Positions 25,435-40,025 of a stretch of 40,161 bases of DNA are shown in pieces (the first letter of the stretch is position 1; each line of letters opens with the position of its first letter). A program made the position numbers and the translations under genes. Source of the stretch: Nitrospirota bacterium. Its GTDB lineage: Bacteria; Nitrospirota; Nitrospiria; JBHHUU01. The notes under the pieces are model-generated. The model did no database searches, was not told the origin of the DNA, and saw nothing but the letters and a program-made list of their open reading frames with translations. Where the stretch lies: positions 1 through 40,161 of the forward strand of contig JBHHUU010000003.1 in the NCBI GenBank assembly GCA_046753905.1, written 5' to 3'.

Positions 25435-27228
25435 TTAATCGCCTATTCTTCTTGCCTCATACCCTGAATACGTTAATACCTCTTCTCCATCAGCCATAAT
25501 TATTCTAATAGTTTCGCCCTTATTGCTGCCTATTCCTGCGACTATTGCTTCACTGTCGGACAAAGTCAGGAGGGGTAAGCTCGTTTTTCCTCTTGAACCT
25601 ACTTCGTAATCCAGAAACAAAAGTCCATCCTTTTGTAAGAGAGTAACATCTCCTATAGGAAAAAGTTCATCCTGATTAGTGACCTTATAAGTTCCAAGAC
25701 GGGCAAGCCATGAATTAGGGATAGGGCGCATGTTGATTTTTTCTCCGAAGAGGTATCGCTTCCCCTTGATGTTTAATATTATAACTCTCCGACCTGAAAT
25801 CTCCTGAATGGAAACCTCCACATCTTTTATCTGACTCACAGGAAAAAGTCCGAAAAGAATCGGTTTTATCGTAAATCGCCCATCCCCAACAGGCAGCAAT
25901 TGGAAACTCTTATTGTTGAAAGATGCAAAAAGTTTTGATTTTTTCAAATAAACTGTAGCGAGCCCGGTTTCTGTACTGTAAGTCCCTTCGAATCCTCTCA
26001 GTTTTTTTATCGGCAGGATAACAACAGAGGGATAATCTCTTTCTGGTTCAGTCTTCTTTTTTATTCCTGTTTGTGTCTCAATAGCCACATTCAAGATATC
26101 TTCTGCAATTTCTTGCACTGCTGGAAAACCAGTTGACGAATTGGCAAGCACCGCCACACCAAGTTTATGCTCCGGCAGTATAGCAAGATAGCTTGTGAAA
26201 GTAAGGGTTTGTCCACCATGATAGGCTATCCTTGTACCGATATCGTCAAGGAACCATCCCAATCCGACCTTGAAATCAAAGTCAAGCGGGACATCGTTAT
26301 TCTGAGGGGTTAGCATATCTGTTATGGTTTCACTATTTAACACCCTCGTATCTTCAACCATACCCTCTGAGAGTATCACTTGCATGAAGCCTGCTAAATC
26401 TATTACATTAGAATAGAGTGAGCTTGCAGGAATATCCCTTAGTGGCGGTTCGTCATACTCTATACCCTTATTGTAACCCTTTGCTAATAGCTTTTCATTT
26501 CGTTTTTCTTCTGCAAAAGAGGAATGAACCATACCAAATGGTTGTAGCACAGACTCATCCATATAAGAGGTGAACTCGCGGTTGCTGACCTTTTCTACCA
26601 TCTGCCCAAGAAGTGTTACACCAATGTTGGAATATGAAAAGATAAGATCAGGCGGGAAAGAGGTATGTTCATCCTTGAGCATGCCTGCAATCCTTGTAAA
26701 AGCACGGGGGTCATTAGTCCATAACCCCTTATAAAGATTAGCGGGCAGACCAGAGTGGTGGGTCATGATATTTCTGGGGGTTATATGACCAGCATTTGAA
26801 AAACGTGTTTTAATGGAAAATTCGGGTAGATAATCTTTCAGAGGCTTATCTATATCTATTTTACCAGCTTCTGCAAGCTGCATGACAGCAACTGCTGTAA
26901 AAAGTTTGGAAATTGAACCTACACGGTATACTGTTTCAGGAGTTGCCTTTACTTTCTCCTTAATGTCTGCATAACCAAACCCCTCTGCAAAGATAAGATG
27001 ATTTTCGTCAACTAAGGCGATGCTCAAACCTGGCACATCATACTTTTTCATCTCTTTCTTAATCAGCCATGAGGCATAACGACGAGTATATTCATAACCG
27101 TCATTTTTTATAGCCAACGGTCTTACCGGCATAGTAGAACACCCGACAACTGCAAAAATCTGTATTGCTGCAATAATACAGATGATAACTGCTGTTTTGT
27201 TTTTTGCTATATTGCTTCTCAAAATCAT
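25435..27228 (-). CDS. Serine hydrolase, beta-lactamase/AmpC-like (peptidase S12) family lipoprotein
   Basis: SxxK (GSISK), YSN, HGG and MTHHSGL motifs; lipobox-like VVGC; GGAGGT SD before ATG 27228. Confidence 0.9.
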   Translation of the reverse strand: MILRSNIAKNKTAVIICIIAAIQIFAVVGCSTMPVRPLAIKNDGYEYTRRYASWLIKKEMKKYDVPGLSIALVDENHLIFAEGFGYADIKEKVKATPETVYRVGSISKLFTAVAVMQLAEAGKIDIDKPLKDYLPEFSIKTRFSNAGHITPRNIMTHHSGLPANLYKGLWTNDPRAFTRIAGMLKDEHTSFPPDLIFSYSNIGVTLLGQMVEKVSNREFTSYMDESVLQPFGMVHSSFAEEKRNEKLLAKGYNKGIEYDEPPLRDIPASSLYSNVIDLAGFMQVILSEGMVEDTRVLNSETITDMLTPQNNDVPLDFDFKVGLGWFLDDIGTRIAYHGGQTLTFTSYLAILPEHKLGVAVLANSSTGFPAVQEIAEDILNVAIETQTGIKKKTEPERDYPSVVILPIKKLRGFEGTYSTETGLATVYLKKSKLFASFNNKSFQLLPVGDGRFTIKPILFGLFPVSQIKDVEVSIQEISGRRVIILNIKGKRYLFGEKINMRPIPNSWLARLGTYKVTNQDELFPIGDVTLLQKDGLLFLDYEVGSRGKTSLPLLTLSDSEAIVAGIGSNKGETIRIIMADGEEVLTYSGYEARRIGD

Positions 27229-27628
27229 AACACCTCCCATTCATATATACTATCCACACACAATAAACCTTATAAATTAACTTAATTAGTAATTATTCGG
27301 CTATTACAGGGTGAGGGTTTCTTCTTACATTTGATCCTGTTTATGCTATTATATACGAAAAAATAATAAAAAGATTCAGGATTTTTCTGTTTGTCAGTGA
27401 AAATAATATTTAACAAGAATACTCGCCAATTACACCATGCACCATGACCAAGAATGGCAACAGCAAAATTAGATTTAACAGAGGATTTCGTGATGGCTGC
27501 ATCAGACAAAGATGGACTGAAGATGAGATGCAAAATGTGATAGTTATTTTTTTACAGATTTATTTGCCAAAATACAATCAGCACAACTTGATTATTGGTA
27601 AATTAGTAAATTAGGTGTTAAAAATAAT

Positions 27629-27657
27629 TTGACAATGAGAATATTATCTTGTACCAT
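27629..27657 (+). promoter_or_regulatory. Putative sigma70 promoter toward the fadL operon
   Basis: TTGACA-17 nt-TACCAT. Confidence 0.5.
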
Positions 27658-27730
27658 ATTATTTTATAATAATGATATTTTTAAACTCTGACTAATTTTT
27701 TGCTTGACTTAATCTGACTGAAAAAATCAA

Positions 27731-27840
27731 TAGACATCTGCAAAATAGCCGAAAATGTCATTCTGAGTGCAGCGAAGAATCTGTTTTTAAGCTAACATAT
27801 AATGACAAAATGGACATATTATCTATTTTGCAGATATCTA
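27731..27840. mobile_element. 110-bp MITE-like element with an internal REP-like palindrome
   Basis: 18-bp terminal inverted repeats TAGACATCTGCAAAATAG / CTATTTTGCAGATATCTA (17/18); internal GTCATTCTGAGTGCAGCGAAGAATCT. Confidence 0.6.
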
Positions 27841-28008
27841 AGAGATCAAATATAAGGAGGTGAACTTATTAAATTGATAATCAAGAGAGATGATTGACTT
27901 AGGCAAAGTCTGTATAACATAATGTTAAAGCTTTATTTAAGTAAGATAGTAAGATTCTATACTTTTTTATAAAAGTTGACGCATTTCATAACTTAAGAGG
28001 GAATAGTT

Positions 28009-29280
28009 TTGAAAAAAATAATTTTTATTCTCTTAAGTCTACTAGGATTAATCACAACTGATTTCTCTGTCTCCTTTGCTGCTGGTTTTGCTATTAATGT
28101 CCATGGTGCAAAGCCTTCTGGAATGAGTGAGGCATTTGCAGCGAGAGCTGATGATCCTTCTACTATATTTTATAATCCTGCAGGTATAAATCAATTAAAA
28201 GGAACAAATCTATCCTTAGAAACAACAGTTATTCTTCCTAATGTAGAGTTTAATTCAGATATAGGGAATAATTCTGAACAGGATAGACAGGCATTCTTTC
28301 CATCTACTCTCTATATCACTCACCAGATAGATAATAGATTCAGTGCAGGACTTGGTATCTTCAGTCCATTTGGTCTCGGGACAAAGTGGCCTAAAGACTG
28401 GGAGGGCAGGTTTATGCTAACTCTCTCAGAGATAAAGACGATATTTATCAATCCTGCCTTGTCATGGCAGATAACCCCTGATCTGTCTGTGGCAGGTGGA
28501 TTTGATTATGTATTTACAGATGTGAGAATAGAGAGACAGATAAACATGGAACTCTATGGAGGAGCTCCTTCCTCAGAGGGAGATATAAGCCTTAAAGGGA
28601 ATGACACAGGCTCAGGTTATAATCTGGGTCTGTTATATCGTATAGATCCAGATTTAAATGTAGGGCTGACATATAGAAGCCCTGTTAAATTAGAGGTCAA
28701 TGACGGAGATGCTGATTTTACTGTTCCTGCGGGTTTTGAATCAACTTTCTCTGACAGCAAAATAAAGACAGATATCACGCTTCCACCGACAATAATATTG
28801 GGGATGATATTCTCTTCTATGTTAAAGGATCTTGCACTTGAGTTTGATCTTACGTGGACAGGATGGTCAAAAATAGATAGACTGGCAGTAGAATTTTTAG
28901 ATAATAACTTGCCAACTGATATAACAGAATTAAACTGGGATGATGTCTTTTCTTATAGGTTTGGAGGGGAGTATAGATGGAGTGAATCTATTCTGTTGAG
29001 AGGCGGATATGCCTTTGAGAAATCTCCCATGCCGGAAGATAAATATACCCCGGCAATATTGCCTGATGGAGACAGGCATATTATCTCATTCGGAGGAGGT
29101 TATGACCATAATAATGGGTTCGGCATTGATCTCTTTTATCAGATTATTCTGATTAAGGGTGATAAGAATAATAATGTCGGCTCGGAATTGAAATCAACTA
29201 ATGTTGCAGATGCAAGGGCAAATGGAGAGTATAAAACAACAGTAAATTTGGCGGGGATAGGGGTTAAATATCATTTTTAA
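28009..29280 (+). CDS. fadL: OmpP1/FadL/TodX family outer-membrane channel for hydrophobic compounds
   Basis: Signal peptide, AGF N-terminus, ADDPSTIFYNPAG hatch motif, SPFGL, PDGDR, C-terminal Phe. Confidence 0.92.
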   Translation: MKKIIFILLSLLGLITTDFSVSFAAGFAINVHGAKPSGMSEAFAARADDPSTIFYNPAGINQLKGTNLSLETTVILPNVEFNSDIGNNSEQDRQAFFPSTLYITHQIDNRFSAGLGIFSPFGLGTKWPKDWEGRFMLTLSEIKTIFINPALSWQITPDLSVAGGFDYVFTDVRIERQINMELYGGAPSSEGDISLKGNDTGSGYNLGLLYRIDPDLNVGLTYRSPVKLEVNDGDADFTVPAGFESTFSDSKIKTDITLPPTIILGMIFSSMLKDLALEFDLTWTGWSKIDRLAVEFLDNNLPTDITELNWDDVFSYRFGGEYRWSESILLRGGYAFEKSPMPEDKYTPAILPDGDRHIISFGGGYDHNNGFGIDLFYQIILIKGDKNNNVGSELKSTNVADARANGEYKTTVNLAGIGVKYHF

Positions 29281-29309
29281 AGAAATTTAGAATAAAAGGG
29301 GGCAGAAAG

Positions 29310-31280
29310 ATGAATAATCAACAGTTATTTGTAGAGATATCTTTACCATATCCAAAAGGTACAAAAATTGTAAAGGAGATAGTTGAACTGAATGAAAATA
29401 TCCTGTCGTTTAAGATGAAGGAAGATGAGGGCTATTTGCTTCCAGGCACACCTTTGCGGAATCTTACAATTCAAAGAAATGGATATAAAAAACATATAGA
29501 TTCCGCTGTAGTAATTTATGCGGATAGGTTAGAAGAATATGGAGAGTATAATATCAGTACTCAATTTGAATCTCCCATGACTATCCCAGAATATCCTATT
29601 AAAGAGACTGACAATGGGGATAGACGAGAATATATCAGAATAATCAGAGAACTCCCCATTAAAATAAAACTTAGAGATCCCCTGAAAAAAAAGATGGTCT
29701 CTGTAGATGGTAATATTATTACATTATCTTATACTGGTATTTCTTTTTCTACTTACCAATCTCTTCCACACTCTATCTCACATATTAGAGTAGAGATTCC
29801 TCTCCCCCCTCCGTTTTTACCAGTAAGATCCAGAGCAAAAATTGTATGGAGAGATAAAGATAAACTATCTTATGGAGCAGAGTTTAAAAGAGAAGAACTG
29901 TCTCTACTGGAATTAGAAAGATTTTTATCTACCATTTCCAGAACTCAAAAAATAGATAGAAGGAATACCACTGATGAAAGGAGAAGTGTTATTGAAAAAA
30001 CAAAAGCAGCAGATAAAAGAGATACTGTTTTTTCAGTTAATGAAAAGAGAAAGATATACAGAAGGATTACTGATATATGGAGATTAGAATCAATAAACTC
30101 CTTTGATATCTCTGAAAAGATCCGCTTATTCAAGAGGCAGAAAGGATTGGGTTATAGTCATGAGGCTGTAAGACTTCAGAGAGAGTGGGTGGCTCAGGAG
30201 ACAGGTGTTGAATTAAAACATATTGGTGTGTTCTCTGAAGATACTGAAAAGATGCGTGGTAATATAGAGAATCTTATTGGGGTGGCTCAAGTACCTATTG
30301 GTATAGCAGGACCGTTAAAGATAAATGGCCAATATGCAAAAGGTGTCTTTTATGTCCCGATGGCAACTACTGAAGGCAGTCTGGTCTATACCTATACAAT
30401 TGGTATGCAGATACTCTCTATGTCAGGCGGCGCAAATACCATGATCCTGAAAGATGAGCTTCATATCTCACCTGTCTTCAGTTTTGAAAATCTTACAAAA
30501 TCAAAATGTTTTGTTGAGTGGTTAAACAATAATTTTAATAAAATTAAAGAACATGCCGAAAAGGTAACAAGACATGGCAGGCTTTTAAGAATAGAGCCTT
30601 ACATCTTTGACAGGAATGTCGTGGTCAAATTCTGCTATTCAACAGGCGATGCAATGGGGATGAATATGGTTACATTTGCTACTGATGCGGCATGTAAATA
30701 TATATCTCCTATAGTCAAACCAAAAAGATTTTATTTGCAGGCAAACTTTTCTTCTATTAAAAAGGTCACTGCTCATAATTTTGTGACAGGTTATGGAAAG
30801 AGTGTTGTTGGAGAGGCTGTTATCCCGCAAAGGCTTATCAAGAGGATATTTAATATTACTCCTAAAAGAATGGTGAAATTCTTTAATCTTGTGCTGCTTT
30901 CTACCACTCACGCAGGGATGATTGGAATGAATGCCCATGTTGCCAATCCATTGACTGCTATCTTTATTGCCTGTGGTCAGGATGCTGCAAATGTAGCTAA
31001 TTCTCATGTTGGGGTTATTAATTATGAGACAACAGAGAATGGAGACCTATATGTAAGTCTGAAACTCCCTAATCTACTTGTTGGGACAGTTGGCGGAGGA
31101 ACTGATATTGGAACACAGCATGAGTGCCTGAAATTATTAGGTTGTTACGGTTCAGGCAATGCCCTGAAATTTTCAGAGATTGTTACTGCGGCAGCATTGG
31201 CAGGGGAGATAAGTTTATGGTCAAGCGTTCTTAATGGATCATTTGCCGAAACCTTCAAAAAATATGCAAAAAAGCAATAA
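29310..31280 (+). CDS. PilZ-domain / class I HMG-CoA reductase-like fusion protein
   Basis: N-terminal RREYIR and LSYTG PilZ-type motifs; C-terminal ENLIG, PMATTEG, TGDAMGMNM, NAHVAN, GQDAA, GTVGGGT, GEISL. Confidence 0.88.
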   Translation: MNNQQLFVEISLPYPKGTKIVKEIVELNENILSFKMKEDEGYLLPGTPLRNLTIQRNGYKKHIDSAVVIYADRLEEYGEYNISTQFESPMTIPEYPIKETDNGDRREYIRIIRELPIKIKLRDPLKKKMVSVDGNIITLSYTGISFSTYQSLPHSISHIRVEIPLPPPFLPVRSRAKIVWRDKDKLSYGAEFKREELSLLELERFLSTISRTQKIDRRNTTDERRSVIEKTKAADKRDTVFSVNEKRKIYRRITDIWRLESINSFDISEKIRLFKRQKGLGYSHEAVRLQREWVAQETGVELKHIGVFSEDTEKMRGNIENLIGVAQVPIGIAGPLKINGQYAKGVFYVPMATTEGSLVYTYTIGMQILSMSGGANTMILKDELHISPVFSFENLTKSKCFVEWLNNNFNKIKEHAEKVTRHGRLLRIEPYIFDRNVVVKFCYSTGDAMGMNMVTFATDAACKYISPIVKPKRFYLQANFSSIKKVTAHNFVTGYGKSVVGEAVIPQRLIKRIFNITPKRMVKFFNLVLLSTTHAGMIGMNAHVANPLTAIFIACGQDAANVANSHVGVINYETTENGDLYVSLKLPNLLVGTVGGGTDIGTQHECLKLLGCYGSGNALKFSEIVTAAALAGEISLWSSVLNGSFAETFKKYAKKQ

Positions 31281-31296
31281 TGTGGAATAATTTATA

Positions 31297-34200
31297 ATGC
31301 TCGTAAAAGGGAAATCTTATAAAAGATTATATGATATCAATAACGTAATTAACAAAGGCGTGGTTTATGCAGGATTATTATGTATAGTAACAATTATAGT
31401 TTCCCTGTTTAAACTTATAGTTAACGAGAATAACCAGATAAACCCATACCTCTTTCCGCCATTAACTACCTCTATATTATTCTTTCTTTATGGTGTCTAT
31501 CTCTGTTCAAAAAATATCAAATCGTCTGTTAATAATACCTTTACGCTTTTTTTGATGTCTCTTGCAATATGGCTTTCAGGATATTCTGTTATCTACTCTA
31601 CTTCTAATTATAATGATGCCATTTTCTGGGGAAAATATCTTTATATCGGGGTGATATTTATACCAACTACCTTTTATCACTTCACCGTAGAACTCTTAAA
31701 GATAAAAGAACAGAAAAAAATAGTAGTCATTGCTTATTTAATAAGTTCTATATTTTTAATCTTCCTGTTTTCAACTGACTGGTTTGTGAAGGGACTGTAT
31801 AAATATTATTGGGGTTATTATGTTAAATCTGGTTTTATGCAGGGTATATTTCTTATATATTTCTTCGGAATATATTCTAAAGGACTTGTTAACTTATATA
31901 CAGGATATAAAAAGCAAAAAGCTCAGAAATCACCAGAGTACAAAAAGACACAATATGTATTCTGGGCATTTTTTGTCGCTGTTATAGGTGCAATTGATTA
32001 TCTTCCCAATTATGGGATTGAATATTATCCTCTTGGCTACCTATTAGTAGGAACACTCTTGTTTAGTATAAGTTATCTCATCATCCAATACAATCTGATG
32101 GATATCCAGACAGTAATGCATAAGACCCTCATCTGGGCAACCCTTTCCTCTATGGTTTTTGTCCCTGTATTTGGTATATTCTATATTGGCCATGACTGGC
32201 TTAACAATCTGGGGAATCTCTATATCTCTATCCTTGTCACAGGGATGTTTATGTTATTGCTCCTTTATACAAAGACCATCCAGCCCCGTATAGATCATCT
32301 CTTTCAGCGGCGGAAATATAATCTTCAGGATATCCTTGAGAATTTTATTCAGGAGATAGCTATACTTAAAGGTCTCGACAACCTTATAGATAAGATACTT
32401 CAAACAGTGATCTCTGCCTTCTACCTTGAGAATGCAAGTTTTGTGCTTTACAATAACAAAACAGGCGAGTATGAGCTTGCAAAAGAGATAGGTCTTAAAG
32501 TAAAAAAAGATTTTTCCACTAATGACAATAGATTTTTTAAGTGGGCAGAGGAATCCAACAGGGTAATTGAATTAACAGAGATAGATAATAATCCATCCTT
32601 AGTAAATATTAAAAGATCAGGGAGACGATATTTTAATAAAGTAAAAGCCATAATCGCCATACCTCTTATCCATAATCATAAGCTAATTGGTATGGTCAAC
32701 CTTGGACAAAAGAAAAATCTGAGGGGATTTGCAAGAATAGAGATAGATTTCCTTTCTCACCTGAAAGTTGAGACATCAATAGCCCTGAGCAACTCGCTCT
32801 TATTTGACGACATAACCAAGATGTCTGAAGAACTTCAGGAGTGGACTAATGAACTAGAACATAAGGTGGATGAGAGGACAAAAGAACTTGCAGATAGCAA
32901 TCAAGAGATTGAACAGGCTTACAACAAACTTAAAGAGCTCGATCATCTCAAATCAGAATTCTTTGCCAATATCAGCCATGAGTTGAGAACACCCCTTACA
33001 CTGATAATAGCGCCTATTGAGTCTATGCTGGCTGGAGAGCTGGGCAGGCACAAAAAGGAACGGATTGTGCATCTCAATATAATGTATGATAACTCGCTTC
33101 GTCTCCTGCGCCTTATAAACAATCTTTTGGACCTTGCCAAGATAGATGCAGGCAGGATGGAAATTTATTACACAAAGGCAAATATATCAGAATTTATAAA
33201 GGGTGTTCTATCATCAGTCTCTTCAGTAGCTGATAAGAAACGTATCAGATTGACCTATTCTTCTGAAGATAAATTTCCGGATATATACTTTGACAGGGAT
33301 AAGATGGAAAGGGTCATGTTAAATCTTATCTTTAATTCCCTGAAATTTACTGATGAGGGTGGAGAGATTATAATTAGCAATGGACAGGATAATGGAAATA
33401 TATGGGTAAAGATAAAAGATACAGGCATTGGGATACCGAGGGAGTATCTGTCAAAGATATTTCAGAGATTTTCTCAGGTAGATGGATCAGCAAGACGAAA
33501 ATATGGAGGGACAGGCATAGGTCTTGCGTTAACAAAGGAGATAGTAGAGCTGCATAATGGAAAGATATATGCAGAAAGTGAAAAAGGAAAGGGCACTACA
33601 ATTAAATTTACTGTACCTGCAATTACAGAGATGGGTGAGCTCTATCAGGAGGAAGAAAGGATTTATAAGAATGACGATGATTGGACACGCAATATTTATA
33701 AAATTGCTGAATATAGCACAGCAGATGCCATGGGGCATAAAAAGGATAGTGCAAGATTGAAAAAGGTTGAAAAAGATAAAGATATTGATCCAAAGAAAGA
33801 AAAGATACTCATTGTAGAGGATAATATAGATATGGTCAATTTTATATCACTTCAACTTGAGGATGAGTATGAGATAGAGAAGGCAGGGGATGGTGCAGAA
33901 GGGGTAGAAGAGGCAAAGAAGGGTTTGCCAGACCTTATTATCTCAGATGTAATGATGCCTTTAAAGGATGGGTATCAGCTTCTAAAGGAGATAAAGTCAG
34001 ATTTTAATACCAGACACATACCTGTAATTCTCCTCACTGCAAAGGCTGATCTGTCAGATAAGATAGATGGTCTTGAATATGGGGCAGACGATTATCTTAC
34101 CAAACCCTTTAATTCCCAAGAATTAAAAGCAAAGATAAGGTCATTAATAAATTTAAGAAAACTTGAAAAAGAGATACAGGAGAGAAACGAAGAGCTTGAA

Positions 34201-35004
34201 AAGACATTAAAAGAATTGAGAAATACCCAGGCACAGCTTATTCATTCAGAAAAGATGGCAGCATTGGGCGTATTAGTTGCAGGTGTTGCCCATGAGATAA
34301 GCAATCCTGTGAGCTTTACCAAAGGGAGTATTAACAATATCAGCAGGTGTTTTAACAATGTAAGAGATATCCTTAATAGAAATCCATTAATTAAAGATAA
34401 AGCAAGAGAGAGTATTGAAGATATGGAATCTTCTTTAAATATAGTCAAAACTGGACTTGAAAGAACAGAAGGTATTGTGATTGACCTGAAGACCTTTGTG
34501 CGAAAGGATCAATTTAATTTTAACATGATGGATATCCATAAAGGACTGGATTCTACTCTGCAGCTCTTACAGTATGAGATAAAACATAAAATTAATCTCC
34601 ATAAAGACTATGGAAATATCAGAAGGATAGAAGCTATTGCAGGTCATATCAATCAGGTGTTTATGAATATATTGCAGAATGCAATTCAGGCAATTAGTGG
34701 AAAGGGTGATATCTGGATAAAGACAGAGGAGCAGATTGATAATGATATGGTTATCATATCTATAAAGGATAATGGTATGGGAATAAAAGAAGAATACCTG
34801 TCAAGAATCTGTGAGCCATTTTTTACAACAAAGGATGTAGGAAAGGGAACAGGATTAGGGCTATCTGTCTCCTATAAGATCATTGAAACCCACGGAGGTA
34901 AGATTGAAGTGAAAAGCAGGGATGGAGAGGGAACAGAATTTATTATAGTATTACCGATTACACAATCAAAAAGGGATATATTGACACTGAGTGCTGTAGG
35001 ATAG
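31297..35004 (+). CDS. Multi-TM (HisKA_7TM-like) + GAF hybrid sensor kinase with two kinase modules (HisKA-HATPase-REC-HisKA-HATPase)
   Basis: About 330-aa hydrophobic N-terminus; GAF (AIPL...GMVNLG); H-boxes SHELRTPL and AHEISNPV; REC IISDVMMP; two G-boxes GTGIGL and GTGLGL. Confidence 0.92.
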   Translation: MLVKGKSYKRLYDINNVINKGVVYAGLLCIVTIIVSLFKLIVNENNQINPYLFPPLTTSILFFLYGVYLCSKNIKSSVNNTFTLFLMSLAIWLSGYSVIYSTSNYNDAIFWGKYLYIGVIFIPTTFYHFTVELLKIKEQKKIVVIAYLISSIFLIFLFSTDWFVKGLYKYYWGYYVKSGFMQGIFLIYFFGIYSKGLVNLYTGYKKQKAQKSPEYKKTQYVFWAFFVAVIGAIDYLPNYGIEYYPLGYLLVGTLLFSISYLIIQYNLMDIQTVMHKTLIWATLSSMVFVPVFGIFYIGHDWLNNLGNLYISILVTGMFMLLLLYTKTIQPRIDHLFQRRKYNLQDILENFIQEIAILKGLDNLIDKILQTVISAFYLENASFVLYNNKTGEYELAKEIGLKVKKDFSTNDNRFFKWAEESNRVIELTEIDNNPSLVNIKRSGRRYFNKVKAIIAIPLIHNHKLIGMVNLGQKKNLRGFARIEIDFLSHLKVETSIALSNSLLFDDITKMSEELQEWTNELEHKVDERTKELADSNQEIEQAYNKLKELDHLKSEFFANISHELRTPLTLIIAPIESMLAGELGRHKKERIVHLNIMYDNSLRLLRLINNLLDLAKIDAGRMEIYYTKANISEFIKGVLSSVSSVADKKRIRLTYSSEDKFPDIYFDRDKMERVMLNLIFNSLKFTDEGGEIIISNGQDNGNIWVKIKDTGIGIPREYLSKIFQRFSQVDGSARRKYGGTGIGLALTKEIVELHNGKIYAESEKGKGTTIKFTVPAITEMGELYQEEERIYKNDDDWTRNIYKIAEYSTADAMGHKKDSARLKKVEKDKDIDPKKEKILIVEDNIDMVNFISLQLEDEYEIEKAGDGAEGVEEAKKGLPDLIISDVMMPLKDGYQLLKEIKSDFNTRHIPVILLTAKADLSDKIDGLEYGADDYLTKPFNSQELKAKIRSLINLRKLEKEIQERNEELEKTLKELRNTQAQLIHSEKMAALGVLVAGVAHEISNPVSFTKGSINNISRCFNNVRDILNRNPLIKDKARESIEDMESSLNIVKTGLERTEGIVIDLKTFVRKDQFNFNMMDIHKGLDSTLQLLQYEIKHKINLHKDYGNIRRIEAIAGHINQVFMNILQNAIQAISGKGDIWIKTEEQIDNDMVIISIKDNGMGIKEEYLSRICEPFFTTKDVGKGTGLGLSVSYKIIETHGGKIEVKSRDGEGTEFIIVLPITQSKRDILTLSAVG

Positions 35005-35009
35005 GTATT

Positions 35010-36221
35010 ATGAGAAAATATGATATGGAGTCATGGAAAGGGATCAATTATAAAAGCTATCCCATCCTATTTGTTGATGATGAAAGGCTGGCATTAGAGA
35101 CCTTTAATATACAATTTAAGAATGAATTTGATATCCATACGGCAAATAATGTAAAAGAGGCAATCTCTATTCTTGACAGGGTAGATATAGCGGTTGTTAT
35201 TACTGACCAGCGCATGCCTGATATGGGTGGTATAGAGTTGTTAAAAATGATAAAGATAAAGAGCCCAGAAGTAGTAAGGATGTTAATAACCGCTTATACT
35301 GACATGGATGTTGTAATAGACGCCATTAATAAAGGGAATGTCTATCGCTATATTACAAAGCCATACAACGAAGATGAAGTCAGAATATCTATTACACAGG
35401 GGATTGAGAGATATTTTTTAACAAGAGAAAGAGACCGTCTCTATGCAGAAAAGATAGAGACATTAAAGAAGATATCCAGGGCAAATAGACTTACCTCTGT
35501 TGGGACATTGGCCGCAGGCATGGCTCATGAGATAAATAATCCCCTTGCTGCCATCAGCACTTTTCTGCAATTAGTTCCGCAGAAATATGAAGAAGAGAAA
35601 AGGGATGATGGATTTTGGGATAATTATTACCATGTTGTTCTCGAAGAATTAGAGAGGATACGAAATATAATTGTAAGGCTTCTACAGTATTCAAAATTTA
35701 TTCCGAAAGAAGAGTTAGAGTTAGAGGAAAAAGATATAAATACTATTCTGGAAAATATGATTATCTTTATTGAAAATGAGGCAAGGAGGAGAGAGATAAT
35801 TATAAAGAGAGACTATAAAAAAGATATATTGAAGATAATGGTAAATACAGAGAGTATAAAACAGGTCTTTTTAAATTTACTGCTCAATGCTATTCAGGCT
35901 ATGCCGAATGGAGGTGAAATAATTGCTAGAACAAGGAATAAAATAGGGAGTGATAATAGTAAACTTATTGAAGTGTCAATAATAGATACAGGGATAGGTA
36001 TATCAGAAGAAAACCTTAAAAAATTATTTGCTCCTTTTTTTACTACTAAAAATCAGGAGGGCAGTGGACTTGGATTGATCGCCTGCTATCAGATTGTAGA
36101 TAGCCACAGAGGGACAATAGATGTACAGTCTGAGCTTGGAAAAGGGGCTTCCTTTACAGTCACCCTTCCATTAAATCCTACTACCCATGACAGAAGAAAG
36201 GGAGAAAGAAGAGGGGAATAA
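35010..36221 (+). CDS. Cytoplasmic REC-HisKA-HATPase hybrid kinase
   Basis: FVDDE, ITDQRMP, AHEINNPL, NLLLNA, DTGIGI, GSGLGL. Confidence 0.92.
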   Translation: MRKYDMESWKGINYKSYPILFVDDERLALETFNIQFKNEFDIHTANNVKEAISILDRVDIAVVITDQRMPDMGGIELLKMIKIKSPEVVRMLITAYTDMDVVIDAINKGNVYRYITKPYNEDEVRISITQGIERYFLTRERDRLYAEKIETLKKISRANRLTSVGTLAAGMAHEINNPLAAISTFLQLVPQKYEEEKRDDGFWDNYYHVVLEELERIRNIIVRLLQYSKFIPKEELELEEKDINTILENMIIFIENEARRREIIIKRDYKKDILKIMVNTESIKQVFLNLLLNAIQAMPNGGEIIARTRNKIGSDNSKLIEVSIIDTGIGISEENLKKLFAPFFTTKNQEGSGLGLIACYQIVDSHRGTIDVQSELGKGASFTVTLPLNPTTHDRRKGERRGE

Positions 36222-36232
36222 TCCTTAACATT

Positions 36233-37633
36233 ATGAAGAGTATTTTAATTGTTGATGATGAATCGGGTGTAAGAGAGTCTATCAGGATGATACTGAAAAA
36301 GGAATATCTCACCCTGATGGCTGCTAATGGTGAAGATGCCATTAATCTTTTTAAGGAAGAACATCCCAATCTAGTGCTGTTAGATATAATTATGCCTGAT
36401 ATTGATGGAATAGAGGTGTTAAAAAAGCTAAGAGAGATTAATAAATCTATTCCTGTAATTATGGTCACAGCCGTACAGATGGTTAAAACAGCAGTGGAGG
36501 CAATGAAATCAGGTGCTGCAGATTATATTACAAAGCCATTTGATATTGATGAGCTGAAATTAGCTGTTAGCCGAACACTTGCCACTCAGGAACTTGAGAA
36601 GGATGTCAAATATCTGCTTTCAGAGTTAATAAAAAGGTATAATATTGTCGGAAAGAGTAAATTAATGATGGATGTCTATTCAAGGATCCATCAGATAGCT
36701 GATACAAAGACAACAGTATTGATCTTAGGTGAGAGTGGAACAGGGAAGGAATTGGCAGCAAGAGCTCTTCATTATAATAGTTCCCGCTGTCATAAGCCTT
36801 TTGTCCTTGTAAACTGTGCGGCAATCCCTGAGTCATTAATAGAGAGCGAGCTTTTTGGCCACGAAAAAGGGGCATTTACAGATGCTCATATCAGAAGAGA
36901 GGGACAGTTTGAAGCAGCCAATAATGGGAGTCTGTTTTTAGATGAGATAGGTGATCTAAGCCTTGCCACACAGGCTAAACTGTTAAGGGTAATTCAGGAA
37001 AGGGAATTTGCAAGGGTGGGAGGAACAAAGACAATAAAAGTTGATGTAAGACTTATTACAGCCACTAATAAAAACTTAGAGGAGGCAATGAGAGATGGAA
37101 GATTCAGAGAAGACCTCTATTATAGAATAAATGTAGTACCAATATATCTTCCATCACTTAGAGAAAGAACTGAGGATATCCCTCTATTAGTAAAATATTT
37201 TTTAAAAAAGAATGCTGAAGAAGAAGGTAAGATGCTAAAGGAAATATCTCAGAATGCAATGGATTTTCTGGTCAGATATCAATGGCCGGGAAATGTAAGG
37301 GAGCTTGAAAATATTATTGAACAGATAGTAGTGTTATCTTCCAATGACAAAATAATGACTGATGACCTTCCCATTCATATAAAGAGTCAGACAGTATCAA
37401 GGGCATTAAAAGAAAAGACTTTATCAGGAAGGATATCTTTTGAAAGGGCTGTAATGGAGTTTGAGAAAGAGATAATATTTGAGACATTGAAAAGAGCTAA
37501 TTACATTCAGACACATGCCGCCAACCTGTTATCCATCAGCAGAAGGATGTTAAAATATAAGATGGATAATCTTGGAATCACTTTAACAAGAGACGGTGTA
37601 TCCATAGCACGAAAAAGGCAAACAAAACTATAA
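36233..37633 (+). CDS. sigma54-dependent response regulator (NtrC/AtoC family enhancer-binding protein)
   Basis: REC domain, Walker A GESGTGKE, GAFTDA loop, FLDEIG, WPGNVRELEN, C-terminal Fis-type HTH. Confidence 0.95.
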   Translation: MKSILIVDDESGVRESIRMILKKEYLTLMAANGEDAINLFKEEHPNLVLLDIIMPDIDGIEVLKKLREINKSIPVIMVTAVQMVKTAVEAMKSGAADYITKPFDIDELKLAVSRTLATQELEKDVKYLLSELIKRYNIVGKSKLMMDVYSRIHQIADTKTTVLILGESGTGKELAARALHYNSSRCHKPFVLVNCAAIPESLIESELFGHEKGAFTDAHIRREGQFEAANNGSLFLDEIGDLSLATQAKLLRVIQEREFARVGGTKTIKVDVRLITATNKNLEEAMRDGRFREDLYYRINVVPIYLPSLRERTEDIPLLVKYFLKKNAEEEGKMLKEISQNAMDFLVRYQWPGNVRELENIIEQIVVLSSNDKIMTDDLPIHIKSQTVSRALKEKTLSGRISFERAVMEFEKEIIFETLKRANYIQTHAANLLSISRRMLKYKMDNLGITLTRDGVSIARKRQTKL

Positions 37634-37646
37634 TCAGGAGAGAAAG

Positions 37647-38792
37647 ATGAATGAAAGAGCACATATTTTAATTGTAGATGATGAGATTGGTCCAAGGGAA
37701 TCATTAAAGATGATTTTAAATTCTTCTTATGATGTCTTTATTGCTGAAAATGGTGAAAAGGCAATCAAATTATTGAGTGAACAGGATGTTGATATAGTTA
37801 CCTTAGACCTTAGAATGCCAGGGCTTCAAGGCACTGAAGTATTAAGAGAGATCAAAAGGCTAAAGAGTGAAATAGAGGTTGTTATTATAACAGGTTATGG
37901 GAGTTTAAACACTGCTGTTGATGGAATTAGATATGGCGCTGCAGATTATTTGATGAAACCATTTAATGTAACAGAGATACTCAGTGTAATAGCAGGGATA
38001 TTGGATAAAAAGAAATCGTATGACCAGTTAAAAGGATTTTTGACAGATATAGAAAAACAGATAGCGTCAGGAGCAGATTTAGATGAGATAAAGAAAAAGA
38101 TAATTGATAGTCATGATTTTTTTAACAAGATAAGAAATATCGTGCAGAGCAGATTTAATGATAATGTAAAGAAAAGAGATATTGACTGCCTTGAGGTTAC
38201 AAGAGTATTAGCAGATATCTTAGATGGTAAAGAACCTCATACCCGTGGACATTCAAGCAGAGTAAATTATTATTCCAATCTCATTGCCCAGAAACTTGAA
38301 TTATCACGGGATGACAGGCATGACCTTCAGATCGGCGCTTTTTTACATGATATAGGTAAAATTGGAGTAGATAATAAGATAATATTAAAAAGTGGAAGTC
38401 TTTCAAAGACTGAGAGAGAGATAATAAAAAATCATTGTGATATAGCTGTGCAACTCCTGACACCACTGGAATTATCGCCTCAAATACTCTCAATAATAAG
38501 ACATCATCATGAGTTTTATAATGGCAGAGGGTATCCTGATGGTCTGAAAGGAGATGATATCTCTGTTCTGGCAAGGATTGTCACATTAGCCGATTCATTT
38601 GACACAATGCTGACAGATCTTCCTTATAAAAAGGGAAGGTCAATAGATGAGGCATTAGCTGAAATAAAGAGATGTGAAGGAACACAGTTTGATCCCATGA
38701 TAGTGCAGATATTTTTAAGGATAATAGAGAATGACAGAGATAATATAATAATAAATTTTTCTACTAAGAAAAAGGAGCTATTTCAAAATTAG
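37647..38792 (+). CDS. REC-HD-GYP cyclic-dinucleotide phosphodiesterase (RpfG-like)
   Basis: REC (LDLRMP); HTRGHS, LHDIGK, HHE..GRGYPDGL, ADSFD, GTQFDP. Confidence 0.92.
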   Translation: MNERAHILIVDDEIGPRESLKMILNSSYDVFIAENGEKAIKLLSEQDVDIVTLDLRMPGLQGTEVLREIKRLKSEIEVVIITGYGSLNTAVDGIRYGAADYLMKPFNVTEILSVIAGILDKKKSYDQLKGFLTDIEKQIASGADLDEIKKKIIDSHDFFNKIRNIVQSRFNDNVKKRDIDCLEVTRVLADILDGKEPHTRGHSSRVNYYSNLIAQKLELSRDDRHDLQIGAFLHDIGKIGVDNKIILKSGSLSKTEREIIKNHCDIAVQLLTPLELSPQILSIIRHHHEFYNGRGYPDGLKGDDISVLARIVTLADSFDTMLTDLPYKKGRSIDEALAEIKRCEGTQFDPMIVQIFLRIIENDRDNIIINFSTKKKELFQN

Positions 38793-38795
38793 AGT

Positions 38796-39146
38796 TTAAC
38801 CTCTTCCCCCGCTCTCTATCTCATTTTTTAATATCGCCAACTGTTGAGTCAGTTCCTTAACCTGATCAGTTAAGTTGGATATCTTTATAGAGTAATGGAG
38901 ACTAATAAGCATCAGAAATATTAATCCTGATAAAAAAAGAGTTGATGTGGGGAGTATAGCTCCAATAAGTGCTGTAATCCATTTCAACAGGTTATACCAG
39001 AGAGATAAAATAATAATAATCGTTCCTGTCATTAACCATAACCAGGAATATTCCTCTCGCAGCTTTCTCTTTTTTACCAGCTCAATTATCATTATAAAGA
39101 TTGAAACAGCCATGGTTATTGCAACTGTTTTTTGACGAATAGTCAT
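38796..39146 (-). CDS. DUF2304 family small membrane protein
   Basis: LVKKRKLREEYSWLW, three hydrophobic helices and a coiled-coil tail; AAGGAGG SD before ATG 39146; usual partner of the adjacent GT2. Confidence 0.8.
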   Translation of the reverse strand: MTIRQKTVAITMAVSIFIMIIELVKKRKLREEYSWLWLMTGTIIIILSLWYNLLKWITALIGAILPTSTLFLSGLIFLMLISLHYSIKISNLTDQVKELTQQLAILKNEIESGGRG

Positions 39147-39174
39147 AATTTTCCCTCCTTTTTCATAACTTCTC

Positions 39175-39253
39175 AAATCACCCTAAATCCCCATTTACTA
39201 AAGGGGGACTTTCCTATATTTCCCCCTTTGGAAAAGGGGGGTAGGGGGGATTT
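39175..39253. repeat. Composite palindromic CCCC-TTT..AAAGGGGG intergenic repeat
   Basis: Two small hairpins (CCCCATTT-ACT-AAAGGGGG; CCCCCTTT-GG-AAAAGGGGG) arranged as an overall inverted repeat closed by AAATC...GATTT. Confidence 0.7.
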
Positions 39254-39293
39254 TCCTCAACTTATTGAGAAGTCACCCTTTTTTCCTCTAAGG

Positions 39294-40025
39294 TTATCTT
39301 TTATAAGGTATCTTTCTCAATAAAGTAACAGAGATTGATAACAACATCTTAAAGATATAATAAAGAGGCTTGATGCCGCTATGCATTGTCTTTTTATTAT
39401 AGACCTTTTCATGCATTACAACAGGCAGTTCTTTTATTCTAAAACCGGCTCTATGTAGCATAATGATTACATCTGCATCAGGATAATCAACAGGATAATA
39501 TTCACTCGCATAAAAACGGATAGATTCTTTATTTAATGCCTGAAACCCTGATGTAGGATCTGTAACCTTCTGTCTTATAATAAGAGAGGCAATTGTTCCA
39601 AAGATAAGAATACCTATCATTCGAGGTAAGGTAGATCTATAACCTCCTTTTAGATATCTGGAGCCGATCGCCACATCAGTATCCCCCGTTTCTACTGCAT
39701 TTAGAAGAGAGGGGATGAATTTTGGATCATGCTGCCCATCTCCATCAATCTGCACAGCATAGTCATAATCATTTTTAATAGCATATTTGAACCCTGTCTG
39801 AAGGGCAGCACCATATCCCATATTAAAGGGCAATCTTATAACTTCTGCCCCTGTACTTCTTGCCGCCTTGCAAGTATTATCATCTGATCCATCATCTACT
39901 ACAAGTATATCTATATCTTGCTGAATAGATATTATATCTCTTATTACATTTGATATATTATCTTCTTCATTATATGCCGGTATGATTATTATTTTAGATT
40001 TTCTGTTCATAGGTAAGATATACAC
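39294..40025 (-). CDS. Glycosyltransferase family 2 (polyprenol-phosphate hexosyltransferase-like)
   Basis: IIPAYNEE, VVDDGSDD, NMGYGAALQTG, DGDGQH, GSRY, DPTSGF; start may be ATG 40010. Confidence 0.92.
   Translation of the reverse strand: MYILPMNRKSKIIIIPAYNEEDNISNVIRDIISIQQDIDILVVDDGSDDNTCKAARSTGAEVIRLPFNMGYGAALQTGFKYAIKNDYDYAVQIDGDGQHDPKFIPSLLNAVETGDTDVAIGSRYLKGGYRSTLPRMIGILIFGTIASLIIRQKVTDPTSGFQALNKESIRFYASEYYPVDYPDADVIIMLHRAGFRIKELPVVMHEKVYNKKTMHSGIKPLYYIFKMLLSISVTLLRKIPYKR

Follow-up and report, generated by a model that had tools for sequence, protein, structure and literature searches.

The stretch of DNA analysed here (the window) comprises 40,161 nucleotides of contig JBHHUU010000003.1 from a Nitrospirota bacterium (GCA_046753905.1). 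Six co-oriented genes at positions 28009 to 38792 are proposed to form a cassette in which a synthase gated by cyclic di-GMP (c-di-GMP) is paired with a receptor for a hydrophobic signal, a reading to which a probability of roughly 0.5 is assigned. Its core would be the second gene, encoding a PilZ-fused enzyme with the fold of 3-hydroxy-3-methylglutaryl-CoA (HMG-CoA) reductase (HMGR), together with the membrane domain of the third gene product, a hybrid sensor kinase. The strongest evidence comes from related genomes, in which the enzyme and the seven-transmembrane (7TM) domain of the kinase move as one block, whereas the GAF domain and the kinase cores do not. The features of the run are listed below (REC, receiver).

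28009..29280, + strand: gene 1, FadL/TodX-family outer-membrane channel, 423 aa (PF03349, 218.8 bits)
29310..31280, + strand: gene 2, PilZ and HMGR-fold enzyme, 656 aa (Pfam PilZ at residues 104-196, HMG-CoA_red at 287-648)
30168..31253, + strand: HMGR-fold catalytic domain of gene 2, class-I HMGR-fold or FcrA-like reductase, residues 287-648
31297..35004, + strand: gene 3, hybrid sensor kinase, 1235 aa (HisKA_7TM at 57-270, GAF at about 360-499, two kinase cores, receiver)
35010..36221, + strand: gene 4, kinase with REC, HisKA and HATPase domains, 403 aa (H-box HEINNP at residue 173)
36233..37633, + strand: gene 5, NtrC-type sigma54 activator with REC, AAA+ and HTH_8 domains (Walker A GESGTGKE; GAFTDA loop)
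37647..38792, + strand: gene 6, REC-HD-GYP response regulator, predicted c-di-GMP phosphodiesterase (HD_5 126.3 bits; HD 234, HHE 287, GYP 295)

The open reading frame (ORF) coordinates confirmed gaps of 29, 16, 5, 11 and 13 nt between the six genes, as given in an earlier sequence-only reading of the window. The domains named there were also recovered with Pfam and NCBIfam, the GAF domain via relatives and a profile match. The run ends at 38796 because the next gene is convergent there. The assembly (2.45 Mb, 273 contigs, 98.8% complete) contains 10 GGDEF matches, rpoN, and 8 PilZ matches, of which only that of gene 2 lies in a large protein. A cassette was defined as an N-terminal PilZ enzyme directly upstream of a co-oriented HisKA_7TM-GAF protein, and genes 2 and 3 have this arrangement. 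Related loci and genomes are denoted by L and G numbers.

Joint replacement of the enzyme and the membrane domain

Two syntenic loci were compared. Locus 1 (G091, G105 and G071) is flanked by PAS-GGDEF-EAL and receiver genes whose proteins are 86-99% identical, and the enzymes lying between two kinases are entirely different among the three genomes. Identity between the orthologous kinases is 15-46% in the first ~300 residues (67% for HKb of L124 versus L130) and rises to 78-100% thereafter. At the DNA level, L124 and L130 are 92.5-96% identical outside two replaced stretches without nucleotide match. One covers ~1 kb encoding the 7TM domain of the first kinase; the other covers the enzyme gene or genes and the first ~225 codons of the second kinase.

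Locus 2 carries divergent PilZ-HMGR alleles in G091 and G079 (L123 versus L132). Here the enzymes are 44-66% and the 7TM domains 28-46% identical, against 91-99% for the rest of the kinase, 91-98% for the REC-kinase and 90-100% for a flanking gene encoding 1100 aa. In G095 (L131 versus L132), the same position holds a PilZ-oxoamine synthase with a 7TM domain of its own, and the non-homologous block ends ~270 codons into the kinase. An enzyme from the family of the autoinducer synthases CqsA and LqsA can therefore take the place of the HMGR-like enzyme. Across the congeneric loci, DNA around the replaced enzyme and 7TM block is otherwise 77-96% identical. The 1100-aa neighbour is divergent to the cassette (L123:12137-15433, L131:158-3466, L132:11790-15098) and contains major facilitator superfamily-like, spermidine-synthase-like and tetratricopeptide regions (Pfam, for L123 and L131; the L123 and L132 copies share 90-100% identity per 100 columns).

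Since the 7TM domain is replaced along with the enzyme and the GAF domain and kinase cores are not, it is the 7TM domain that is matched in specificity to the enzyme. This fits a matched synthase and receptor and exceeds what the sequence-only reading had proposed. The pattern also yields a simple rule by which matched enzyme-receptor pairs can be sought in genomes.

The same data bear on a second explanation, that the enzyme is a regulated lipid output. The 7TM-GAF kinase would then sense a membrane property or an outside cue, DesK being the model of a kinase that senses membrane properties, and would switch on a lipid enzyme gated by c-di-GMP or phosphorylation. In the window, an FcrA-like reductase would provide the fatty alcohol needed for ether lipids, wax esters or remodelling of the envelope, and the product would affect the sensor only indirectly via the state of the membrane. 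We regard this as rather unlikely. Replacement of the 7TM domain alone with the enzyme, next to GAF and kinase cores that are 78-100% identical, is hard to square with general membrane sensing. In the related genomes, sensors with the 7TM type of another cassette occur without the matching enzyme, which suits ligand-specific receptors better. Several cassettes with unrelated enzymes occur in single genomes. A scan limited to ORFs of the window found no wax synthase or ether-lipid gene. On the other side, every enzyme type in the slot is a lipid or acyl enzyme, and the enzymes carry input domains: PilZ, REC in L143 (a REC-HMGR fusion followed by a 7TM-GAF kinase gene) or REC-PAS-PilZ in L140. 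In L002, the sensor itself is a 7TM-GAF-HD-GYP fusion beside a PilZ-HMGR gene. FcrA, in turn, is described in the main text of its report as feeding wax-ester, and possibly ether-lipid, synthesis (PMC11948995).

Matching of 7TM type to enzyme type was also apparent across families. The 7TM domains linked to ketoacyl-ACP synthase III (KAS III; ACP, acyl carrier protein), from three genomes and two families, share 50-57% identity with each other versus 26-42% with other types. In a 35-row sensor tree, sensors of one genome are spread over clades, beside same-enzyme sensors from other genomes. Partner-enzyme labels required 14 changes on this tree, compared with 17.9 on average after shuffling (14 or fewer in 1/200 shuffles), and the HMGR label 4 against 11.8; these statistics overstate the support because related genomes are not independent and kin share labels.

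Some sensors lack a resident partner. In G091, the first kinase carries a 7TM domain of the KAS III type (52-57% identical), yet the genome has no PilZ-KAS III, its best matches to the KAS III catalytic domain being 30-31% identical in frames of 326-467 aa. In G105, the 7TM domain of the first kinase is 77% identical to that linked in G071 to an enzyme with two PilZ domains and an unknown domain, and this enzyme is missing from G105, whose assembly reaches just 86% completeness. Receptors that lack a synthase in the same genome would suit signals coming from other cells; as evidence for such orphan listeners, these cases are no more than suggestive.

Enzymes in the slot and linkage across phyla

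Slot contents were recorded for 20 further loci of the window's class, holding 23 related 7TM-GAF kinases. An enzyme gene lies directly upstream and co-oriented for 17 of the 23: PilZ-KAS III in five, PilZ-HMGR-like in four, PilZ-oxoamine synthase (AONS/KBL/SPT/CqsA family) in two and aldehyde dehydrogenase in two. The remaining slots hold one each of PilZ-methyltransferase, 2xPilZ-acyltransferase-methyltransferase, a 2xPilZ protein with an unknown domain, and ACP-PilZ-thioesterase, the last preceded by a 2xPilZ-ketosynthase. Among the six kinases without an upstream enzyme, three open a kinase - enzyme(s) - kinase arrangement and have enzymes directly downstream; the other three follow a REC-kinase, a beta-propeller protein or a transposase. 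The transposase (L135:3991-5175, - strand; DDE type, ISAZ013 family, 422.6 bits) sits in the enzyme slot itself. The check proposed in the sequence-only reading, whether other lipid enzymes occupy the same slot in related loci, thus had a positive outcome.

The two kinases of L124 enclose PilZ-haem-oxygenase-like, PilZ-acyl-CoA dehydrogenase and aldehyde dehydrogenase genes. For the 2xPilZ enzyme of L125, no Pfam family besides PilZ and no PDB relative was found. The KAS III partner retains Cys-His-Asn and the oxoamine synthase retains the lysine for pyridoxal phosphate (PLP). In L129, the latter scored 285-290 bits against AONS/KBL and serine palmitoyltransferase and 138 bits against CqsA. 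This L129 protein (L129:9412-11208, - strand) has Phe aligned with the His of the 'ddahg' stretch of a solved relative, a His that presumably contacts PLP; the change echoes the His-to-Phe change in the enzyme of the window, described below. A RelA/SpoT gene directly follows the REC-kinase at both L129:2436-4628 and L137:2429-4582, two cassettes from the same family of which one has an oxoamine synthase and the other a KAS III.

A reciprocal check of five congeneric genomes gave 96 PilZ matches. Ten of the proteins lie in frames longer than 350 aa, and 9/10 are cassette enzymes. The one large PilZ protein away from the listed 7TM matches (G079:C1:3357302-3357859, 833-aa frame) has a PilZ region 48% identical to that of PilZ-KAS III.

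Linkage of the HMGR-like gene to a HisKA_7TM gene was assessed at 83 genome loci encoding class-I HMGR homologues (80 one-per-species genomes and three relatives from the window's class). A HisKA_7TM gene is directly downstream and co-oriented in 12/83, at gaps of -3 to 67 nt with one of 1042 nt; none of the other 71 has a HisKA_7TM neighbour. In a metagenome scan seeded with REC-fused variants, the same arrangement was present in 15/43 loci. The gene-neighbourhood linkage to the kinase that the sequence-only reading had suggested looking for was thus found. Linked loci were labelled Nitrospirota, Spirochaetota, Elusimicrobiota, Omnitrophota, Planctomycetota and Acidobacteriota, plus one metagenome-assembled genome labelled Clostridia. 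By Pfam, the 7TM partners have HisKA_7TM and GAF domains with a kinase output in most, an HD-GYP output in L002 and no output domain in L064. Enzymes without PilZ (L003, L004, L014, L020) are likewise linked to a 7TM-GAF gene, so that the conserved pair is the enzyme and the 7TM-GAF protein.

A single 48-row clade (local support 93) of an unrooted 119-row FastTree tree contains all 31 linked enzymes. The clade also holds 17 unlinked rows: L005, L149 and L167, where the contig ends after the gene, six actinobacterial rows, a metagenome subclade of seven, and L080. Within the window's phylum, the enzyme was found in 12/401 sampled genomes (E <= 1e-60), two new close matches being directly upstream of 7TM matches. 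At class level, a full-length match occurs in 5/41 genomes (G000 and four relatives), while the sensor part is far commoner, with homologues in 75/151 genomes of the class.

Several groups of homologues stand outside this linkage. A Solirubrobacterales-labelled subclade of the 48-row clade (L029, L074-L077, L079) has Tyr/Ala at the position of human Arg590 and no 7TM neighbour. HMGR-like genes of the same clade at L148:563-11944 and L160:3145-9307 also lack a 7TM neighbour. Theirs are a short-chain dehydrogenase/reductase, a ~620-aa protein of no known family, a GNAT protein and an NAD epimerase/3-beta-hydroxysteroid dehydrogenase-like protein, an arrangement resembling a small-molecule gene cluster; L148 further encodes a MacB/FtsX permease and an MmgE/PrpD protein of 926 aa that carries a hotdog domain of the AfsA (A-factor synthesis) type. 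A separate 27-row clade (L006, L008-L013, L016-L019, L021-L024 and others; labels Acidobacteriota, Planctomycetota and Verrucomicrobiota) carries Phe, Gly, Glu and Arg in place of Ser684, Asn686, Asp690 and Lys692, keeps Arg590 and His866, and includes several members with long N-terminal extensions (frames of 554-906 aa).

The HMGR-like enzyme and its input domain

Gene 2 matches HMGR at family level (PF00368, 371 bits against a cut-off of 27), and its best solved relative is the archaeal class-I HMGR 6hr7 (311 bits). Both scores would fit an ordinary HMGR, serving isoprenoid synthesis or mevalonate use and placed by chance among signalling genes. Against the NADPH-type HMGR equivalog TIGR00533, the enzyme scored 348.5 bits, under the cut-off of 441.8. 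It is the only PF00368 match in its genome, where no match was found to HMG-CoA synthase C (PF08540), mevalonate kinase (TIGR00549) or diphosphomevalonate decarboxylase (TIGR01240); IspH, of the methylerythritol phosphate route, is present. The absence of mevalonate-pathway genes, reported earlier for the window, thus extends via these three markers to the whole genome. With HMG-contact residues also lost and the linkage to 7TM kinases conserved and not accidental, the view that the protein is not a mevalonate-pathway HMGR is upheld, and the ordinary-HMGR explanation is close to refuted.

The enzyme was aligned with 6hr7 and Arabidopsis HMGR1 and then with the 83 genome homologues, and residues were counted over the best 120 database homologues. 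At the positions of human Arg590 and Asp690 the enzyme has Ile364 and Ile483, and Lys735 falls in a gap; these three residues contact HMG in HMGR. In HMGR the catalytic set is Glu559, Lys691, Asp767 and His866, with roles also described for Ser684 and Leu862, according to the main text of PMC11948995. The enzyme retains Glu320, Lys484, Asn546 and Asp558. Its catalytic set is incomplete, Phe649 standing at the His866 position, Gln477 is found at the position of Ser684, a further HMG contact, and Phe645 at that of Leu862. Equivalents of the retained Glu, Lys, Asn and Asp are invariant (120/120 homologues), and the His866 equivalent is His in 98/120 and Phe in 18/120. Pocket positions vary: Arg is kept at the Arg590 position in 33/120, and the Asp690 equivalent is Ile in 54, Val in 20, Asp in 16, Asn in 15 and Glu in 10. 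The Leu862 equivalent is Phe or Tyr in 116/120, and that of Ser684 is Arg, Gln, Lys or His in all 120.

An invariant catalytic core with a varied, mostly hydrophobic pocket argues for active enzymes with other substrates, and the enzyme is predicted to be likely active on a non-HMG thioester. The contrary possibility is that the HMGR-like domain is a non-catalytic adaptor which binds a metabolite (acyl-CoA or NADPH) while PilZ binds c-di-GMP, the protein docking on the kinase. The exchange of the catalytic His for Phe, seen in the window's protein and 18/120 homologues, would suit an adaptor, as would the Phe at the 'ddahg' His of the L129 oxoamine synthase. We nevertheless judge it improbable, given the invariance of Glu, Lys, Asn and Asp where substrate-contact positions vary, the intact Cys-His-Asn and PLP lysine of the KAS III and oxoamine synthase partners, and a dedicated ACP and ketosynthase before the HMGR-like gene in five loci, implying real chemistry.

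In those five metagenome loci, the order is ketosynthase, ACP (85-90 aa, with an Asp-Ser attachment motif) and HMGR-like gene. A HisKA_7TM gene follows in L153, L161, L166 and L169, and the contig of L170 stops inside the HMGR-like gene; the ketosynthase is PilZ-fused in L166 and L169. One database homologue (P0031) is an ACP-PilZ-HMGR fusion, and a separate clade combines adenylation, carrier and HMGR-like domains in single proteins of 1035-1113 aa. Because of these ACP neighbours, the ACP fusion and the tri-domain proteins, the HMGR fold is seen to recur as a reductase beside phosphopantetheine carriers. The tri-domain AMP-binding/PP-binding/HMGR-like proteins (L171:6102-9209, L172:6087-9242, L175:5817-9158, L178:6012-9164; an Atlas cluster of 112 members shares the architecture) follow the plan of carboxylic acid reductases, with the HMGR fold replacing the usual reductase. 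There being no ketosynthase or ACP in the window, the substrate of gene 2 would come from the general acyl-CoA or acyl-ACP pools.

FcrA provides the nearest precedent. It is a fatty acyl-CoA reductase related to class-I HMGR that reduces fatty acyl-CoA and not HMG-CoA, occurs in bacteria without the mevalonate pathway, is sometimes ACP-fused, has a bulky residue at Leu862 and has lost the HMG-binding (salt-bridging) Lys (PMC11948995, ISME J 2025, main text). The window's enzyme shares with FcrA, as described there, the fold, catalytic residues, a genome without mevalonate markers, the bulky Leu862 replacement (Phe645), the lost HMG Lys and the occurrence of ACP-fused forms among its homologues. 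It differs in several respects. FcrA keeps all four catalytic residues, whereas the window's enzyme has Phe for His866. The Ser684 position is Glu in N. pharaonis FcrA and Gln, Arg, Lys or His in the window's clade; the Arg590 and Asp690 equivalents are kept in FcrA-like alignment rows and lost in that clade. PilZ (REC in relatives) replaces the 'Lad' domain, and the neighbour is a 7TM kinase, not wax-ester genes. In the unrooted tree, which contained no FcrA reference sequence, the window's clade stood apart from rows with Glu/Trp FcrA-like motifs. The main text of PMC11948995 contains no mention of PilZ, response regulator or Nitrospir (figures and supplements lay outside the search). Given the published activity of FcrA, the enzyme by itself is not the novelty, and the guess of an alcohol or aldehyde product has experimental backing at family level. 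This product, suggested in the sequence-only reading, is plausible from the pocket changes, the ACP and ketosynthase neighbours and the FcrA precedent; the missing catalytic His of the window's own enzyme counts against it.

The PilZ domain of gene 2 (residues 104-196) scored 26.8 bits against a Pfam cut-off of 22.5. The c-di-GMP motifs of PilZ are RxxxR and [D/N]hSxxG (10.1101/814665, in the text available). The first is present as RREYIR; the second reads TLSYTG, with Thr replacing Asp/Asn. A second, degenerate PilZ-like domain spans residues ~10-88 and shares 41% identity with a canonical one from L128. Cassette enzymes other than the HMGR-like type mostly have canonical RxxxR and [D/N]xSxxG motifs. 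Of the PilZ feedback on the synthase put forward in the sequence-only reading, the domain and its first motif are present, and the degenerate second motif weakens the proposal.

Proposed circuit, accessory genes and known systems

By Pfam, the hybrid kinase contains HisKA_7TM (57-270, 48.3 bits), HisKA, HATPase_c in two stretches, and a receiver; the first core has His571, the receiver Asp884 and the second core His999. GAF matches in this protein lie below the Pfam cut-offs (20.8 and 21.1 bits), and the assignment is backed by relatives that pass the cut-offs and by a profile of 32 sensor regions that matched solved GAF domains. The search of solved structures with this profile returned GAF domains only and no relative of the 7TM part. 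The REC-kinase and the C-terminal half of the hybrid kinase are paralogous, and a REC-kinase follows the 7TM kinase in most related loci. In the sigma54 activator, REC, AAA+ and HTH_8 all exceed the Pfam cut-offs, the GAFTDA loop being a one-residue variant of GAFTGA. Gene 6 has the HD_5 domain and the HD, HHE and GYP motifs of an HD-GYP protein.

Functional coupling of the enzyme and the 7TM sensor is considered highly probable. In the proposed circuit, gene 2 would act as a cytoplasmic NAD(P)H-dependent, FcrA-like thioester reductase, most likely converting acyl-CoA or acyl-ACP to a hydrophobic aldehyde or alcohol, with its activity placed under c-di-GMP control by PilZ. The product or a close derivative would enter the membrane and be detected there by the hybrid kinase through its seven-helix domain; that it is the ligand of the sensor is given about even odds. 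Phosphate would then pass from the hybrid kinase to its own receiver and second kinase core and on to the REC-kinase, with the sigma54 activator (transcription) and the REC-HD-GYP protein (c-di-GMP hydrolysis) as end points. The HD-GYP output could feed back on the enzyme via PilZ, and FadL could serve as the outer-membrane route for the hydrophobic molecule. Substrate and product, c-di-GMP binding and the order of phosphotransfer are all inferred.

A PAS-GGDEF-EAL gene flanks the cassettes in L124, and orthologues 87-97% identical flank L125 and L130. From the PilZ and REC inputs, the HD-GYP fusion in L002 and such HD-GYP and GGDEF-EAL neighbours, the sensor very probably acts on the enzyme, by phosphorylation or c-di-GMP. 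The simplest circuit would be a loop in which the product is sensed and the sensor sets enzyme activity, as suggested by the 7TM-enzyme matching and the input domains. That the product is a true cell-to-cell signal is somewhat doubtful. More broadly, and tentatively, the cassettes may represent a large and so far undescribed family of cell-to-cell lipid signalling systems, with c-di-GMP-gated synthases of interchangeable fold, matched HisKA_7TM receptors, strain dialects at the same site and orphan listeners.

Besides the dependence among related genomes and the incomplete G105 assembly mentioned above, several observations weigh against a synthase-receptor cassette. Adjacency and co-replacement show matched specificity and not the direction of information flow, and enzymes fused to REC or PilZ receive signals, which fits the enzyme as an output equally well. 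Enzyme type and 7TM type are not one-to-one, HMGR-linked sensors falling in at least four separate clades. In the window's own protein, the second PilZ motif is degenerate, and the thioester-cleaving step may be impaired or altered because Phe649 stands at the catalytic His position, as it does in the 18 homologues. Finally, FadL is rare in the cassette family, and 0/25 cassettes are preceded by a sigma54 promoter motif.

The last two points concern the genes around the core. The FadL protein has a signal-peptide-like N-terminus (MKKIIFILLSLLGL...), and its gene is the only FadL-family gene found in the genome (one match). The enzyme gene directly follows a FadL gene in the window and at L014, L064 and L146. 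Over the linked loci with 1300 nt or more of DNA upstream, the frequency is 2/23, L146 and the window coming on top of this count. In the sequence-only reading the signal would enter via FadL; at this frequency, and as the sole such gene of the genome, FadL was rejected as a core part. FadL, the sigma54 activator and the HD-GYP protein are accessory. FadL may still help a hydrophobic molecule across the outer membrane, and in rhizobia it has been tied to extracellular levels of long-chain acyl-homoserine lactones in the text of PMC9938287. The sigma54 and REC-HD-GYP outputs named in the sequence-only reading are both present in the window; among the loci examined, they follow the kinases elsewhere only in L140.

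No TGGCAC-N5-TTGC-type sigma54 site was found in 27534-28008 with up to two mismatches, and a relaxed pattern found none before any of 25 cassettes (the window and 24 related). Autoinduction of the cassette through sigma54 was therefore rejected. A sigma70 scan of 27200-39400 gave 69 promoter-like sites against 52.2 expected (sd 6.7), modestly above chance, and 6 terminator-like sites against 6.3, at chance level; being near chance, the scan carries no information on co-transcription.

The cassette logic resembles that of the Cqs, Rpf and Phc systems. The Rpf system of Xanthomonas, for the diffusible signal factor, comprises RpfF, RpfC and RpfG. Shared features are a fatty-acid enzyme turned to a new use, a membrane-bound hybrid kinase and a REC-HD-GYP protein whose output lowers c-di-GMP. 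The window differs in its sensor family, in having no crotonase domain of the RpfF type in the six proteins (Pfam) and in the predicted action of c-di-GMP on the synthase itself, via the fused PilZ. The agrBDC and comQXP loci are specificity-group ('pherotype') loci with peptide signals and divergence within one gene family. As in these, a signal-producing gene and the sensor membrane domain diverge jointly while the kinase core and flanks are conserved; unlike these, the cassettes exchange whole enzymes of unrelated folds. In the Cqs system, output passes via the sigma54 activator LuxO, and we know of no PilZ domain in PhcB of Ralstonia.

CqsA/CqsS-LuxO of Vibrio and LqsA/LqsS of Legionella pair an autoinducer synthase with a sensor kinase (PMC3285556, PMC3376566, in the text available). 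As they are described there, the likeness lies in an acyl-thioester enzyme beside a multi-helix membrane kinase without a large periplasmic domain, and in the CqsA-family oxoamine synthase that fills the HMGR-like slot in L129 and L131. The window differs in its enzyme fold, the HisKA_7TM-GAF sensor, the PilZ on the synthase and three kinase cores in series; no CqsA-family synthase was found by Pfam in its six proteins. In the Ralstonia PhcB/PhcS system, a methyltransferase makes a fatty-acid methyl ester that is detected by a sensor kinase (PMC10576176, in the text available). PilZ-methyltransferases in the slot at L138, L141 and L140 are reminiscent of this arrangement, as far as that text describes it, whereas the window has no methyltransferase. 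Enzymes gated by a fused or associated PilZ, with c-di-GMP-dependent output, are known from cellulose synthase BcsA and from Alg44 (10.1101/814665, in part); these are polysaccharide synthases, in contrast to the acyl and lipid enzymes of the cassettes. A literature search, covering few subscription journals and no supplements, found no description of PilZ-fused acyl or lipid enzymes or of their pairing with HisKA_7TM kinases, and the portions of text naming HisKA_7TM described no ligand for the domain.

If the proposed reading is true, a ligand class would be assigned to the widespread HisKA_7TM sensor domain, which would be a lipid-signal receptor. C-di-GMP would act directly on small-molecule synthases, beyond its polysaccharide, motility and transcription targets, and signal output would be tied to the producer's own c-di-GMP state. 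HMGR-like acyl reductases would gain a signalling role beyond wax esters. Chemical communication with strain dialects would be placed in slow-growing, mostly uncultured Nitrospirota (including relatives to which sources give the name Candidatus Manganitrophus), Omnitrophota and Elusimicrobiota. With its single cassette, the genome studied here is a clean system from which to begin reconstitution.

The only perfect sigma54 -24/-12 site of the window (TGGCAC-N5-TTGCA; 0.02 expected by chance) is at 2521-2536 on the + strand, 25 kb upstream of the cassette and ~250 nt before a + strand run of ORFs at 2784-25217. These encode a 330-aa protein of no known family, a stand-alone receiver, a C25 propeptide together with a C25 peptidase of the gingipain type, and a 5609-aa surface protein whose repeats are of the BNR, CHB_HEX_C and fn3 types. 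That this run is a target of the cassette's sigma54 activator is speculative.

The genes flanking the cassette seem unrelated to it. Upstream and divergent, 25435-27240 (- strand) encodes a 601-aa serine beta-lactamase/penicillin-binding-protein-like protein. Downstream and convergent, 38796-40025 (- strand) encodes DUF2304 and a family-2 glycosyltransferase. Among the related loci, the HMGR-linked kinase at L127:5827-9592 (G105) is split in two ORFs of 379 and 887 aa, and the HMGR-like gene at L041:3010-4259 consists of two overlapping ORFs; both may reflect frameshifts, decaying copies or assembly errors.

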